Notes: generated by a model from the sequence alone, not told the origin. A stretch of DNA of 64,000 nt from Cetorhinus maximus (GCF_964194155.1 NC_135898.1:68014001-68078000); one strand, 5' to 3'. Shown: positions 14,956 to 62,365, counted from the stretch's first letter. Program-made: numbers and translations.

Positions 14956-15204
14956 AATTTTTTTCTTTCTTAAGCACAGCTCATAGTGCCACTATAACAT
15001 GAGAACAGTTGATTTTTTTTTGCAAATGTAATGTTAAATTTATACATGATCCATTATTTATCTCCAATGAAAAAGAGCAGTAATTTATATTGTGTGTTTA
15101 TCTCTTTTATTTTAAACCAAAATACCATAGTCATTTTCTGATTGTGGTTTTATTCTTCAACAGAAAATGGGTGTTATAACAAATCTTCAATACTTTCGTG
15201 CCCC

Positions 15205-15550
15205 TGGCCTAACCATCTTCAGTTGCTTCATTCATAAGGTCAGAAGTCCATCATAAGGTTAGAAGTGGGGATGTTCGCTGATGATTGCACAATGTTCAAC
15301 ACCATTTGCAAACTCCTCAGATGCTGAAGCAGTCCATGTCCAAATGCAGCAGGACCTGGTCAGCCCAAGGCTAAATGTTGTCAAGGGCAAGTAACATTCG
15401 TGCCACACAAATGCCAGGCAATGACCATCTCCAACAAGAGAGAATCTAACCATCGCCCCTTGACATGCAATGGCATTACCATCACTGAATCCCCCCACTA
15501 ACAACATACTGGAAGGTTACCATTAACCAGAAACTAGACTGAACTAGTAT
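15205..15550 (+). mobile_element. HER1-like CR1-clade LINE RT fragment
   Basis: Encodes EVGMFADDCTMFNTI...VHVQMQQDL; collinear with 51030-51280. Confidence 0.85.
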
Positions 15551-29267: not shown

Positions 29268-31236
29268 TCATTTACGGGTGCTACGTCTTGGTACTGCCCC
29301 ATCGCTCGGAGTGGGACCTGAGCCAGCCTGATGACTCTGCTGTCCTGTTGGCCTTGATGACCTTGGCTGTCGTCCTCTGGCCCGTGGAACCTGTGTTGGC
29401 CCCGCCTGGGAGGGAGCTGCCAGTTCCACAGCTGGCATCTCCCCAGTCGTCGCAGCCTCACTGGATGATACAGTTCCTGGGAGAGGGGCGGAGGAGCTGC
29501 CGGCCTCATCCGGAGCGCCCTGAGAGGATCCCGCAGAGACGACAGGCAACTGCTGCACCAACATGAGGTTGCTTCAGACCTCCCTGCTCTCCGTGGATGG
29601 ATGGGCAATGAGCTGGGAAACTAGATGCCCACACCATCTCCCACACTGGCAATGAGCAGTTGAGGTCATTGCCGATGTGAGGGCTTGCTGGTTTGGGCGC
29701 ATCCCCAGGAAGCCCTGATGGGTCTCCTGGAGTAGGGTCTCCACAAGAGTCGCCACTCTCTCCATGGAGGACGCTAAGTGTTCAGACATGTGGCTCATTG
29801 CTTCAGCGGGCATCCACGTGGACTCCTCCACCACAGACACCATGCCAAGCATAAACTCATGTATCTCCCCCAGATGCTCCCGCACACCTGGCCGCATTTC
29901 CTGCACCCGCTGCGTCGCAGACAACTCCAGAGGCTCATCATCAGGCACCAACTGAGCATGTGCCTGGTCCCTTGCAGTCCTCCGACTGCTGGCACCATAG
30001 GCACTCTCCGTCTCTGCCAGCTCCTCCAGCGAGTGTGAAGTGCCGCCACTACTGTGCCCCGGGACACTAGCCATTGTTCTAATTCCCACCGAGATGCTAA
30101 TATCTGTGCTGGTGCCTGCCTCGCAGAAATGGCGTGACGCTGGTGAGACTTCAGGGCCCTCAGGTGAGAGAGGGGCAACTGCTGCTCCTCCTCCCAGCCG
30201 TGCTCTGATGATGCTGAAAGGAAGAACAAGGACAGTGGATCAGTTAGCACCTCCTGCTCGAAGTGGCTTATTATGGGGAGCTGTGCATGGCCACCTCCAG
30301 TCCTCACACGCTTGGCCGCATTGCTAGCATTCTCCTCCTGAGAAAGAGAGAAGAGCCTTGATTAGGGCAAATTGCACATGGACTCTGTTCACGCACGGAC
30401 CATCCCAACCAGTGGGACATATCAGGCCTCCAGTGCCTCCTCACCCCGCTGCTGCCGATCACTCAGATAAAGATGCCAGGCCTGCTCCCCACACCCCCCG
30501 CCACCCCCTTGGGCACATGCTGCTTACATCACATTAGGAACCAGACGGTATTTCCTCCCATAGCAAGGAGGCACAAGCACGTGCAGCACAGAGGGCAGCA
30601 GATGGTTTGTTGCCACACCACCTTGAAGCTCCCCTTCCACCATCTCATCACCCTGACTAGGACATGTCCTGGAGTTCTGAGTCTGCGCCTGGGTGCAGCT
30701 CCTCCAGGTTGCCCCCAAACCAGTCATGTGGGACTCAGATCAACACATACTGCAGGGAAAAACTCATCTCCTCATGACCCACTCAGGCCGACCTCAGCAT
30801 GGGCACTATCTGCTTGCCCACCCAGCAAAGGAAAAATGCCGTCAATGATTCAATGCAGTGACACTGAGACTTGGGGGGTGGGGGCCGCAGAGGGTAAGGC
30901 TACCTGCTGGGTTAAATGCCCAATGCCAACATGGTACCCACCCTTCCTGAGCGCAACAAATTGTTGAAGTGCTTGCAGCACTGGATCCAGGTGCGCCGCA
31001 CCACGTTGCGGGAGCTCACCACCTCCACCACCTCTTCCCAGGCATGTTTGGTCATGTGGGGGGGGCCTCCTCCTCCTATCCTGGGGGACTAACACCTCCT
31101 GCCGTGCTGCCACCTCCTCGAGGAGGGCAGCAAGACAATGATCAGGAAAATGAGGGGCACATTGGCACCCTGCTGGCCTACCCTCCAGCCTGGCCTGCTC
31201 ACCTGAACCCCTCTGCTGCGGCCTAGCACTGGCCAT
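29268..31236 (-). pseudogene. Spliced Myb/SANT-like (NAIF1/Myb_DNA-bind_5-like) Harbinger partner gene, disrupted
   Basis: Exon 1 (31236-30942): APHFPDHCLAALLEEVAARQEVL..(frameshift)..AWEEVVEVVSSRNVVRRTWIQCCKHFNNL, then a GT donor. Exon 2 from 30337 after a tctcAG acceptor: EENASNAAKRVRTGGG. Downstream coiled-coil-like region with SSMERVATLVE. Confidence 0.85.
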
Positions 31237-35149: not shown

Positions 35150-35588
35150 CTGATCCAGGACAATGCTGCCCACTTTATTAGCACCCCATCCACCACCTTA
35201 AACATACATTCCCTCCACCACTGATGCACAGTGGCAGCATGTGTACCATCTACAAGATGCACTGCAGGAACTCACCACGGCTCCTTTGACAGCACCTTCC
35301 AAACACACAACCTCTATCAGCTAGAAGGACAAAGGCAGCAAATGCATGGAAACACCTTCCAAACTACAAACCTGCCTGACTTAGAAATATATCATTGTTC
35401 CTTCACTGTCGCTGGATCAAAATGCTGGAACTCCCTCCCAAACAGTACTATGGGTGTACCTACACCATAGGGACTGCAGTGATTCAAGAAGGCGGCTCAC
35501 CACCACCTTCTCAAGGGTAATTAGAGATGGGCAATAATTGATGGCCTAGCGAGCGATGCCCACATTCTATGAACGAATAAATTTTAAG
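35150..35588 (+). mobile_element. HER1-like LINE 3' fragment
   Basis: Encodes SFTVAGSKCWNSLPNS...FKKAAHHHLLKG; tail gatgggcaataattgatggcctagcgagcgatgcccacattctatgaacgaataa. Confidence 0.88.
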
Positions 35589-50130: not shown

Positions 50131-53100
50131 TTTTTTTCGTTCATTCACGGGAAGTGGGCTTCGCCGGCTGGGCAAGCATTTATTGCCCATCCCTAGTTGC
50201 CCTTGAAAAGATGGTGGGGAGCTGCCTTCCTGAACCGCTGCAGTCCATGTGGTATAGGTACACCCACAGTGCTGCTAGAAAGGGTTTCTGGGATTTTGAC
50301 CCAGTGATAGCAAAGGAATGCTGATATATTTCCAAGTCAAGATGGTGAGTGACTTGGAGGGTCACCTCCAGATGGTGGTGTTCCCATCTATCTGCTGCCC
50401 TTGTCCTTGATGGTAGTGGTTGTGGGTTTGGAAGTTGCTGTCTAAGGAGCTTCGGTGAGTTTCTGCAGTGCAATTTGTAGATGGTACACACTGCTGCTAC
50501 TGTGCTTCAGTGGTGGAGGCAGTGAATGTTTGTGGATGTGGTGCCAACCAAGTGGACTGCTTTGCGCTGGATGGTGTCCAGCTTCTTCAGTGTTGTGGGA
50601 GCTGCACTCATCCAGGCAAGTGGAGAGTATTCCATCACACTCCTGACTTGTGCCTTGTAGATGGTGGACAGGTTTTGGGAAGTCAGGAGATGAGTTACTT
50701 GTCACACGATTCCTAACCTCTGACCTCCTCTTGTAGCCACAGCATTTATATGGCTAGTCCAGTTCAGTTTCTGGTCAATGGAAACCCCCAGGATTTTGAT
50801 AGTGGGGGATTCAGTGATGGCAATGCTGACTCTCACTGGGGTACAGTTCCACACACACTGACTCTCAATGGGGTACAGTTCCACACAAACTGACTCTCAC
50901 TAGGGCACAGTTCCACACACGCTGACTCTCGCTGTCCATTGTTCTCGATCTTTGCACAAATTGGAGCCATATGTCCTTATCTACTCTGTTTCGACCACTC
51001 ATGATTTGAAGGAGGAGATGGGGAGATGGTTAGATTCTCTTGTTGGGGATGGTCATTGCCTGACACTTGCGTGACACGAATGTTATTTGCCGCTTGTCAG
51101 CCCAAGCCTGGATATTGTCCAGGTCTTGCTGCATTTGGACATTGACTGCTTCAGTATCTGAGGAGTCGCGAATGGTGCTGAACATTGTGCAATTATCAGT
51201 AAACATCCCCACTTCTGACCTTATGATGGAAGGAGGGTCATTGATGAAGCAGCTTAAGATGGTTGGGCCTAGGACACTACCCTGAGGAACTCCTGCAGTG
51301 ATTTCCTGGAGCTGAGATGACTGAACTCCAACATCCACAACCATCTTCCTTTGTGCTAGGTATGACTCCAAACAATGGACAGTTTTCCTCTTGATTCCCA
51401 TTGACGCCAGTTTTGCTAGGGCTCCTTGATGCCACACTCTGTCAAAATACTGCCTTGATGTCAAGGGCAGTTACTCTCACCTCACCTCGGGAGTTCAGCT
51501 CTTTTGTCCAAGGCTGTAATGAGGTCAGGAGCTGAGTGGCCCTGGCAGAACCCAAACTGGGCGTCAGTGAGCAGGTTATTGCTAAGCAAGTGCCGCTTGA
51601 TAACACTGTTGATGACCCCTTCCATTACTTTACTGATGATCAAGAGTAGACTGACGGGGCAGTAATTGGCCGGATTGGATTTGTCTTGCTATTTGTGTAT
51701 AGGACATACCTGGGCAATTTTTCACAGCCGGGTGGATGCCAGTATTGTAGCTGTACTGAAACAGCTTGGCTAGGGGCGTGGTAATTTCTGGAGCACAAGT
51801 CTTCAGTACTATTGCTGGAATATTGTCAGGGCCATAGCCTTTGCAGTATTCAGTGCCTTCAGCCATTTTTTGATATCACATGGAGTGAATTGAATTGGCT
51901 GAAGCCTGGCATCTGTGATGCTGGGGATCTCTGGAGGAGGCCAAGATGGATCATCCACTCGGCACTTCTGTCTGAGGATTGTAGCAAATGCTTCATCCTT
52001 ATCTTTTGCACTGATATGCTGGGCTTCCCCCATTATTGAGGATGGGGATATTTGTGGGGCCTTAGATCTGATCCATTGGTTGTGGGATCACTTAGTTCTG
52101 TCTATCACTTGCTGCTTATGCTGTTTGGCACGCAGGTAGTCCTGTGTTATAGCTTCACCAGATTGACACTTCATTTTTAGGTATGCCTGGTGTTGCTCCT
52201 GACATGCCCTCCTGCACTCTTTATTGAACCAAGGTTGATTCCCTGGCTTGATGCTAACGTAGAGTGGGGGATATGCTGCACCATGAGATTACAGATTGTG
52301 TTCGAGTACAATTCTGCTGCTGCTGATGGCCCACAGCGCCTCGATACCAAGTCTTGAGTTGCTAGATCTGTTCAAAATCTACCCCATTTAGCAAGGTTGT
52401 AGTGCCACACAACACGATAGAGGGTATCCTCAATGTGAAGGCAGGACTTCATCTCCACAACAACTGTGCGGTGGTCACTCCTACCAATACTGTCATGGAC
52501 AGATGCATCTGCTGCAGGCAGGTTGGTGAGGATGAGGTCAAGTATGTTTTTCGCTTTGCTGGTTCCCTCACCGCCTGCCGCAGACCCAGTCTAGCAGCGA
52601 TGTCATTTAGGACTCGGCCAGTTCGGTTAGTCGTGGTGCTACCGAGCCACTCTTGGTGATGGACAGTGAAGTTCCCCCAACCCAGATTAAATTATGCGCC
52701 ATTGCCACCCTCAGTGCTTCCTCCATGTATTCAACATGGAGAGCACTGATTCATCAGCTGAGGGACCAGTACATGGTAATCAGCAGATTTCCTTGACTAT
52801 GTTTGACCTGATGCCATGAGACTTGATGGAGTCAATGCTGAGAACTCCCAGGGCAACCCCCTCCCGACTGTATACCACTGTGCCGTCACCTCTGCTGGGT
52901 CTGTCCTGCCAGTGAGACAGGACATACCCAGGGATGGTGATGGTGGAGTCTGGGCCATTATCTGTAAAAAATGATTCCGTAAGGATGACTATGTCAGGCT
53001 GCTGCTTGACTAGTCTGTGAGACAGCTCTCCCAGATGTTAGTAAGGAGAACTTTGCAGGGTCGACAGGACTGAGTTTGCCGTTGTCGTTTCCGGTGCCTA

Positions 53101-53480
53101 GGTCAATGCCGGGTGGTCCGTACAGTTGCATTCCTTTTTTTGAGACTTTGTAGTGGTTTTATACAGCTGATTGGCTTGCTAGGCCATTTCAGAGGGCATT
53201 TAAAAGTCAACCACTCTGCTCTCCTTACCAGGTCTGGAGTCACTTGTAGGCCAGACCAGATAAGGACACCAGATTTCATTCCCTAAAGGACATTAATGAG
53301 CCAGATGGGTTTTTACAATGATTAACTATGGTTTCATGGTCATCATTAGACTCATAATTCCAGATTTTTATTGGATTCAAATTCCACCAACTGTTGTGGT
53401 GGGATTCAAACCCAGGTCCCCAGAGCATTACCCTGGGTCTTTCTAGATTACTAGTCCAGCGACAATACCACTACACCCCC
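50131..53480 (-). mobile_element. Near full-length HER1-like CR1-clade LINE with a tRNA/V-SINE-derived 5' end
   Basis: APE endonuclease (LTNIW..LVKQQPDIVILTES..PGY..DRPSRG), RT (FDRVWHQG, GVPQGSVLGP, GMFTDN), HE1-type 3' tail with poly(A). 5' head has an A box (53467-53477) and a B box (53401-53413). Many stops and frameshifts. Confidence 0.9.
50826..50934. repeat. 32-bp minisatellite (ctgactctcactggggtacagttccacacaca) x3.4
   Basis: Units start at 50826, 50858, 50890 and 50922. Confidence 0.92.
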
Positions 53481-54454: not shown

Positions 54455-54555
54455 TATGGAATCATAGAATAGTGCAACAAAGAAGGAGGCCATTTAGCCC
54501 ATGACATCTGCACGGTTCTTTCAAAGAGCAATCCACTTGATCCCACTCCTCCCTG
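54455..54555 (-). mobile_element. CR1 3' tail fragment
   Basis: atcatagaatagtgcaacaaagaaggaggccatttagccc. Confidence 0.6.
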
Positions 54556-61518: not shown

Positions 61519-62365
61519 TTTTATTGATCCATTCATGGGATGTGGGCACCGCTGACTCGGCCAGCATTTATTGCCCATCCTTAATTGCCCTTGAGCAGGT
61601 GGTGGTGAGCTGCCTTCTTGAACCGCTGCAGACTATTTGGTGTAGGTACACCCACAGAGCTGTTAGGAAGGGAGTTCCAAGAATTTGACCCAGCGACAGT
61701 GAAGGAACGACAATATAGTTCCAAATCAGGATGGTGTGTGACTTTAAGGGGAATTTGAAAGTGGTGGTGTTTCCATCTATCTGCTGCCCTTGTCCTCCAA
61801 TGGGTAGAGGTCACAGATTTGGAAGGTGCTGTCGAAGGAACATTGGTGAGTTTCTGCAGTGCATAGATGATACACACCACTGCCACTGTGCAACGGTGGT
61901 GGAGTGATAGAATGTTGCAGTAGTGAATGGGGTGCCAATCAAGCGGGCTGCTTTGTCCTGGATGGTGTTGAACTTCGAGTGTTGTTGGAGCTGCACTTAT
62001 CCAGGCAAGTGGGGAGTATCCCATCACACTCCTGACTTGCGCCTTGTAGGTGATAGACAGGCTTTGAGGAGTCAGGAGGTGAGTTACTTGCCACAGGAGT
62101 CCTAGTCTCTGATCTGCTCTTGTAGCCACAGTATTTATATGGCTAGTCCAGTTCAGTTTCTGGTCAATAGTAACCCTCAAGATGTTGATAGTGGGGGATT
62201 TGGTGAAGGTAATGCCATTGAATGTCAAGGCATGGTAGTTAGATTCTCTCTTGTTGGAGATGGTCATTGCCTGGCACTTGTGTGAGTGAATGTTGCTTGC
62301 CACTTATCAACCCAAGCCTGAATGTTGTCCGTGTCTTGCTGCATATGGACACAGGCTGCTTCAGG
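61519..62365 (-). mobile_element. HER1-like LINE 3' fragment
   Basis: ORF 61581-62303 (HKCQAMTISNKRES..IDQKLNWTSHIN..FKKAAHHHLLKGN) plus HE1/HER1 tail. Confidence 0.9.

Follow-up and report, generated by a model that had tools for sequence, protein, structure and literature searches.

Does a shark LINE carry the tRNA-derived head of a SINE as its own 5′ end, and could such an element be read by RNA polymerase III (Pol III)? This question arises at positions 50131 to 53477 of the window (the whole 64,000-nt stretch of Cetorhinus maximus DNA analysed here), where the original prediction had placed a tRNA-like Pol III head and a V-domain-like core directly in front of LINE sequence. Judged by its sequence, this region is one decayed, near-full-length copy of the elasmobranch Zenon LINE family on the minus strand. 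Its features, together with those of a related SINE in the same window, are as follows:

50131..53477, minus strand: Zenon LINE copy (family length ~3.28 kb), in the order tRNA-Thr-derived head, ~220-nt body, single endonuclease-reverse transcriptase (EN-RT) ORF, A-tail
53392..53478, minus strand: head derived from tRNA-Thr(AGT) and containing the A and B boxes of an internal Pol III promoter (ARAGORN call on sibling copy L121)
53467-53478, minus strand: A box, worn in the window copy
53403-53413, minus strand: B box, worn in the window copy, ~52 nt from the A box
53165..53391, minus strand: conserved non-coding body, common to LINE and SINE; not a V domain
53055..53164, minus strand: LINE-only leader with A-rich spacer, conserved out-of-frame ATG and an Arg-rich stretch that is open in the ORF2 frame but lacks an in-frame ATG
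53129-53131, minus strand: the conserved ATG of the leader, out of frame with the EN-RT ORF
50193..53054, minus strand: APE-endonuclease and reverse-transcriptase ORF, in the family ~934 codons long when counted from the start of EN; stop at 50193-50195
52061/52062, minus strand: 65-nt deletion in the ORF relative to the family sequence
50827..51019, minus strand: copy-specific insertion of ~193 nt relative to the family sequence
50826-50934: 32-bp minisatellite, 3.4 copies, inside the ~193-nt insertion
50131..50206, minus strand: 3′ tail common to the SINE (last ORF codons, 3′ UTR, A-rich end) with a predicted stem-loop
59485..59849, minus strand: partner SINE, in which the Zenon tail directly follows the tRNA head and body (to 59557)

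Layout of the copy and its place within Zenon

The majority sequence of 30 copies, in which a single homopolymer slip was put right by reference to the alignment, served as the family sequence and measures 3,284 nt. The window copy matches it in three blocks at 89-93% identity, lacks ~11 nt at the 5′ start of the family, and has an ORF broken by many stops and by 17 non-triplet indels; on its sense strand, the decayed copy has gained five runs of four or more T (T4+). The window around it is dense in SINEs and LINE fragments. Both promoter boxes lie on the minus strand where they had been claimed, and their family forms match the textbook Pol III box consensus. ARAGORN called the head of one of six sibling copies (L121) as tRNA-Thr(AGT) and made no tRNA call on the window. 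Rfam returned eight matches on the head, all far below the gathering score, and no family near the gathering score on the body. From the end of the head part at 53165 to the EN motif KVLLTNIW, which runs from 53054, the gap is ~110 nt, close to the 115-130 bp that had been claimed and with no room for an ORF1.

By sequence likeness, the LINE is the elasmobranch Zenon of Stuart (2026; PMC13343379; this and the other papers given by PMC number are cited from excerpts). Over the first 400 nt, the portion of the supplementary consensuses at hand, head and junction agree with CarCar_Zenon-1, HypSab_Zenon-1, RhiTyp_Zenon-1, ScyCan_Zenon-1 and SquAca_Zenon-1 to -3, the agreement being judged by eye; motifs from the window also matched the Zenon rows of that supplement. 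CarCar_Zenon-1 measures 3,288 nt compared to 3,284 nt here, and both lack an ORF1 and carry an A-tail (PMC13343379). Zenon is throughout described there as lacking an ORF1 and ending in poly-A, with elasmobranchs, coelacanth and hagfish as vertebrate hosts. As the absence of ORF1 is ordinary for Zenon (PMC13343379), the ORF1-less structure is unsurprising. The main text of that paper contains "tRNA" and "polymerase III" not once and "SINE" once, in a reference title; its account of Zenon, in the excerpt at hand, describes neither the head nor a partner SINE, the T-run deficit or the missing start codon. A whale-shark preprint, likewise in excerpt, only names a "CR1-Zenon like LINE". In the open full-text literature we found no shark LINE described as having a tRNA head or as being transcribed by Pol III; subscription journals, Repbase, Dfam and SINEBase lay outside this scope and may hold an entry for the SINE or a remark on the head. 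The tRNA-headed Zenon is apparently an undescribed variant of a known LINE family.

Dispersal of the unit and its 5′ ends

A search of the animal's own 4-Gb genome with the junction returned 10,605 first-look candidates, which is not a copy count, and the best 40 of these were scored. All 39 non-self matches among them span the junction of head and EN, with 81-86% identity. The idea of a one-off junction is rejected by this recurrence. Nearly all of the 39 fetched loci align colinearly with the window copy, and the loci extending to the 3′ end mostly share its stop point. To avoid circularity, a second genome search was run with the EN sequence only, which gave 29 non-self loci among the best-scored matches. 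Of these, 23 continue colinearly into the head, one has the head rearranged, and five are cut at nt 321-474 and have mutually unrelated flanks. None of the 29 shows another 5′ UTR, another 5′ end or an ORF1, the findings that the original prediction had named as contrary to its reading. Among the 69 loci in which the EN start is present, the 5′ end falls within nt 1-24 in 42, inside the head in 21 and beyond the head in six; such a spread is the pattern of 5′ truncation on one RNA. Copies picked by their 3′ end (29) mostly stop short within the 1.9 kb visible, as is usual for LINEs.

The head is not confined to this genome. It opens all seven elasmobranch Zenon consensuses in the first 400 nt given in the supplement of Stuart (2026), from five species that include sharks and a ray. 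In the same 400 nt it is absent from two hagfish consensuses and one coelacanth consensus, and T4+ runs occur in two of these three. Head, junction and EN were also found at great depth in contigs from three organisms, and contigs of five RNA or presumed-RNA runs cover head and body, although contigs cannot show start, strand or level. Two metatranscriptomes also contained the element, in small shares that do not point to a host other than a shark. [quoted passage not shown]

The median non-CpG divergence of 89 copies is 5.7% (range 3.9-13.3%); of the near-identical pair of loci L033 and L035, the latter was left out of the divergence, variant and head-tree analyses as a duplicate. No intact copy was found among 189 loci, the longest open stretch being 389 aa. 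Target-site duplications, counted as matches of at least 9 nt with one mismatch, were seen in seven of 20 full-length copies versus 14% of shuffled pairs, a difference that A-tails partly inflate. A search for a sister family with the fragment L077 returned the same Zenon family.

Outside this family, no homolog of the element and no head motif was found in viral contigs or prokaryote genomes. Likewise, a B box was found upstream of the ORF in none of 56 metagenome LINE loci with long ORFs, all of which are distant and many of which lack the 5′ end, and ARAGORN made one call on 33 metagenome LINE loci, within an ORF and on the opposite strand. Motifs of the body gave no match in the supplement of the MetaSINE paper, and the bivalve Meta rows are unlike the body by eye. 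MetaSINEs are defined by a 66-bp Meta domain directly behind a tRNA-Thr-like head; the head here is tRNA-Thr-like.

Reading frame, T-runs and the route of transcription

The family sequence holds one open frame of 975 codons with EN from nt 425, and Pfam recognised Exo_endo_phos, Exo_endo_phos_2 and RVT_1 (PF03372, PF14529, PF00078) on open stretches of sibling copies. The nearest database proteins are unnamed and share 40-42% identity with the ORF. In the 424 nt before the EN start, the family sequence has stops in all three frames and no ORF1. The consensus bore out an open ORF2 without T4+ runs, but not a regular start codon: no ATG occurs in frame until codon 291, which lies beyond the EN domain. 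The well conserved ATG at nt 348 is in a different frame, with ~35 codons open behind it. A start of translation downstream of ~nt 340 is suggested by a stop variant at nt 319 in 27 of 62 copies and by a short deletion at nt 338-340 in seven copies. In gene-caller predictions, related unnamed proteins have their initial Met at the EN start or slightly upstream of it. No significant fold was found in the leader when an IRES, a ribozyme or a frameshift structure was sought (z ~ -1.5 for the family, +0.4 for the window copy), and no canonical slippery heptamer was seen there.

Among transversions, synonymous and non-synonymous changes stand at 294:1250 for singletons versus 23:30 for variants found in at least four copies (P = 7e-5); the same comparison for transitions gives P = 0.01. 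As shared variants are enriched in synonymous changes, the source elements were kept by selection on the EN-RT protein, and purifying selection on the ORF in the source lineages is shown at the level of sequence variation. Linkage between head and ORF is weak, with two variant pairs at P<0.002, uncorrected.

The composition of the sense strand bears on the polymerase. Over 3,284 nt, the family sequence has no T4+ run and six T3 runs, versus 14 A4+, 11 C4+ and 9 G4+ runs. The expected number of T4+ runs depends on the null model: 4.35 after base shuffling (P = 0.014), 4.8 under a codon model (P = 0.005), 2.1 when codon usage is held constant (P = 0.083) and 1.7 when dinucleotides are (P = 0.18-0.19). 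Runs of three or more T (T3+) number four in the ORF, where 12.8 are expected at constant protein and codon usage (P = 0.0005); a count of six compares with 11.9 expected at constant dinucleotides (P = 0.04). Non-canonical T3-V-T2 signals number zero versus 1.9 expected. The TT dinucleotide is itself depleted (O/E 0.72), which explains much of the T4 deficit. As the absence of T4 is non-significant under the codon-usage and TT nulls, UU could be avoided in general for another reason. The deficit is specific to T and to the sense strand. Two shark CR1 families built in the same way show no deficit (six T4+ in 1,918 nt and 15 in 2,668 nt). In 80 metagenome LINE loci, the lowest T3 O/E is 0.58 and the median 1.07, compared to 0.23 for the Zenon family, and one of the 80 has no T4 in the matched part (1.9 expected). 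All of these controls stand far from the element (22-39% protein identity) and are not demonstrated members of Zenon. The T-run signal is real and specific, but the deficit of TT and T-runs fits read-through by Pol III rather than proving it.

A tRNA-derived promoter combined with a family sequence free of T4 makes it likely that the element is read by Pol III. Pol III transcription of the Zenon LINE is plausible, and so is the possibly Pol III-headed, ORF2-only LINE of the original prediction, to which the depletion of T-runs adds an independent argument. We lean towards the view that the copy derives from an ORF1-less, tRNA-Thr-headed Zenon whose source elements were probably transcribed by Pol III and probably translated without a normal AUG start. 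TFIIIC would bind the internal A and B boxes, and Pol III would read 3.3 kb without an internal terminator and stop at a flanking T-run. Within the ~110-nt leader, translation of the uncapped RNA would then begin independently of a cap or at a non-AUG codon, and ORF2p would bind the 3′ stem-loop and insert the RNA by target-primed reverse transcription, which would yield mostly 5′-truncated copies. The SINE would share this promoter and make use of the common tail in trans. The fullest version of this history, to which we give an even chance, holds that since before the split of sharks and rays an autonomous coding LINE has been transcribed end to end by Pol III, has had terminators purged from its 3.3 kb, has been translated from uncapped RNA without an AUG, and has given rise to the SINE by a deletion of its middle. 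No precedent for a 3.3-kb coding Pol III RNA was found in the literature consulted.

The strongest alternative, which we regard as possible though clearly the less probable, is that the head serves as a Pol II promoter or enhancer or is a passenger 5′ UTR. The RNA would then be capped, ORF2 would be reached by leaky scanning or reinitiation past the out-of-frame AUG, and the T deficit would stem from other pressure, such as U-rich processing, decay or nuclease signals. LINEs are indeed generally held to be Pol II products (PMC5786205, PMC10886601), the overall depletion of TT covers much of the T4 deficit, and an AUG ~77 nt before the EN start is kept in six of the seven published elasmobranch consensuses over the 400 nt given. 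On the other hand, the deficit is specific to T and to the sense strand and is absent from the two shark CR1 families and the 80 other LINE loci, 5′ ends pile up at the tRNA start, and this head also drives a classical SINE whose TT deficit is of the same kind (O/E 0.63). Within the first 400 nt, three shark Zenon consensuses retain an intact B box, while those of the ray and the dogfish show changes in it.

It is improbable that the long head-bearing elements are non-autonomous chimeras of SINE head and LINE body, mobilised in trans by a Zenon whose own 5′ UTR and start codon were ordinary. Such chimeras would account for the missing in-frame AUG and for the lack of an intact copy in the 189 loci, and a rarer 5′ variant could escape the best 40 scored matches. 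Yet the 29 EN-selected copies include no alternative 5′ end, the shared variants are enriched in synonymous changes, and the head is found on every published elasmobranch consensus in the excerpt at hand. A chance SINE insertion beside a 5′-truncated LINE at this one locus, or an HE1/HER1 pair, is hardly conceivable: SINEs and LINE fragments are dense in the window, but the junction recurs in all 39 other scored matches and in five species, which refutes chance adjacency, and the V domain of an HE1/HER1 pair is absent.

The partner SINE and the direction of its origin

The SINE consists of nt 1-315 of the LINE joined to nt 3216-3284, that is, the last ~69 nt including the last ORF codons, with the same junction in 30 of 30 loci. 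In the window, its head matches to 59557 and is followed by the last ~69-77 nt of the LINE; the claim of a bipartite SINE made of the two ends of the LINE unit therefore held exactly. It has the marks of a tRNA-derived SINE, namely a head with A and B boxes, no coding capacity, a length below 700 nt, a LINE-derived tail and dispersed high copy number, and it seems to be undescribed.

The SINE HE1 and the CR1 LINE HER1 of elasmobranchs reportedly go back to work by Ogiwara in 1999 and 2002. Like the present pair, they comprise a shark tRNA-SINE and a LINE with a common 3′ tail, but HE1 contains a V domain and the SINE described here does not. HE1 is a V-SINE (PMC4824008, PMC3747384). A 22-nt stretch of the V consensus (from the excerpted supplement of PMC6887750) gave no match in the window at three mismatches, and a 16-mer V-domain motif none in 189 loci. 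Two genuine V-domain SINEs of the same genome share with the element only a 15-nt B-box match, in one of the two. The identification as HE1, V-SINE or HER1 is thus rejected as the V domain is absent from the element; of the autonomous LINE supposed to carry both the promoter and the V domain of the SINE, the tRNA head stands and the V domain falls away. Two canonical CR1 families rebuilt from flanks share 26-31% protein identity with the ORF and have a different tail. The tail of the SINE is that of Zenon and not that of these two rebuilt CR1 families.

The heads of SINE and LINE are ~90% alike by alignment count. In a head tree of 72 rows, 42 LINE rows split from 30 SINE rows with support of 100/99; the tree is unrooted, its bootstrap had not converged, and its SINE rows were chosen by likeness to one copy. 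One segment of the body is slightly longer in the SINE and is present also in the spiny dogfish Zenon-1 row (by eye, in the published 400 nt), which implies an old split between SINE and LINE. The fusion point at the boundary of SINE head and tail is automatic under deletion and an extra step under capture, which gives a slight lean to deletion. By a small preference, we regard the SINE as an internal deletion of an older head-bearing Zenon rather than the LINE as having taken its head from a SINE.

Bipartite derivatives of this kind are known from other LINEs. Persaeus, the SIDE of lepidopteran Zenon, likewise combines the LINE 5′ end with the ORF end, 3′ UTR and A-tail, but it lacks tRNA homology and a Pol III promoter in the account of PMC6740152, whereas here both the short and the long element are tRNA-headed. 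Zenon also mobilises SINEs in butterflies and bivalves (PMC6685494, PMC11481361). Bov-tA, AfroSINE and WALLSI2 (Kojima, 2018; PMC5786205) are RTE- or Vingi-derived SINEs, likewise with 5′ and 3′ parts of the LINE; in these only the SINE received the tRNA head, the LINE is taken to be a Pol II product, and RTE and Vingi are the only donors found. The same paper mentions in passing RTE-1_DAn, a LINE with tRNA-like sequence, and in the excerpt at hand proposes no Pol III reading for it. Non-LTR elements are described as Pol II-transcribed and Pol III elements as short (PMC10886601); the TRIMp3 elements Cassandra, Helenus and Ajax of that paper likewise have a Pol III small-RNA promoter but are short non-coding LTR elements. 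Chimeras of tRNA and L1 in mammals arise as rare single events and mostly contain antisense tRNA halves (PMC13174262). Among sharks, the tail of SacSINE1, a DeuSINE, is that of L2-2_CM, and other shark SINEs are covered in the same paper (PMC5499810).

The pair described here forms a visible intermediate in how SINEs may acquire or swap LINE tails and in where SINE bodies may come from. If Pol II is responsible for its transcription, Zenon would still be an unreported, long-lived LINE family with a SINE as its 5′ end. The division between LINEs, which are coding and transcribed by Pol II, and SINEs, which are non-coding and transcribed by Pol III, is a basic rule of retrotransposon biology. 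Pol III, for its part, is not known to produce messenger RNA in animals. If true, the existence of a natural 3.3-kb Pol III unit with coding capacity would break both rules and make the export and translation of uncapped RNA testable; head-bearing Zenon would then amount to a SINE with a reverse transcriptase of its own. R2 is a coding LINE with uncapped RNA and no normal start codon; its RNA is cut by a ribozyme from a Pol I co-transcript.

The 3′ tail that LINE and SINE have in common is predicted to form a stem-loop (z = -3.0 versus base shuffles). Most of 20 full-length copies have A-rich ends, and a few carry T-rich variants.

Zenon remnants and a CR1-type end in the window

In addition to the copy of Zenon, the ORF1-less LINE family of sharks and rays, the window includes further pieces of this family, which are mostly 3′ parts of 5′-truncated elements and share 73–87% identity with the family sequence. 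The 32-bp minisatellite listed below lies inside an insertion that is private to the Zenon copy of the window. The element end at 54458-54500, which closes with a match to a CR1-like repeat, exhibits no relation to the Zenon tail.

Features of the window (Zenon fragments by alignment to the family sequence)
9746-9853, minus strand, Zenon fragment
15198-15547, plus strand, Zenon fragment
30592-30665, plus strand, Zenon fragment
35153-35578, plus strand, Zenon fragment
50826-50934, 32-bp minisatellite, 3.4 copies
54458-54500, minus strand, 3′ terminus of either a canonical CR1-type element or its SINE (terminal CR1-like repeat match)
61527-62364, minus strand, Zenon fragment

A V-domain SINE of the same genome

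A genuine V-domain tRNA SINE could be detected in the Cetorhinus maximus genome at two loci (L325:1390-1720 and L326:1390-1720), with only 2 exact 30-mer matches genome-wide. Its tail matches neither of the two CR1 families rebuilt in this analysis.

Zenon in protein and RNA records

In the database protein P0038, a FERM-domain protein of the horn shark, the annotated N-terminus (first ~120 aa) is a piece of Zenon RT at 72% identity, which probably reflects either exonisation or a gene-model artefact. Head and EN pieces of the family were also found in two metatranscriptomes (X19 and X20, one labelled coral) upon comparison with a sibling copy (L121:1850-2420), and would most simply be explained by shark material within the sample.

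Paired and nested copies

Two copies on G000:C12 (L033 and L035) lie ~100 kb apart on opposite strands. As their near-identity extends into the 5′ flanks and both contain an inverted head piece, they probably stem from a local inverted duplication and not from two separate insertions. At several loci (L046, L067, L075 and L088), SINE and Zenon copies directly adjoin or nest in each other.
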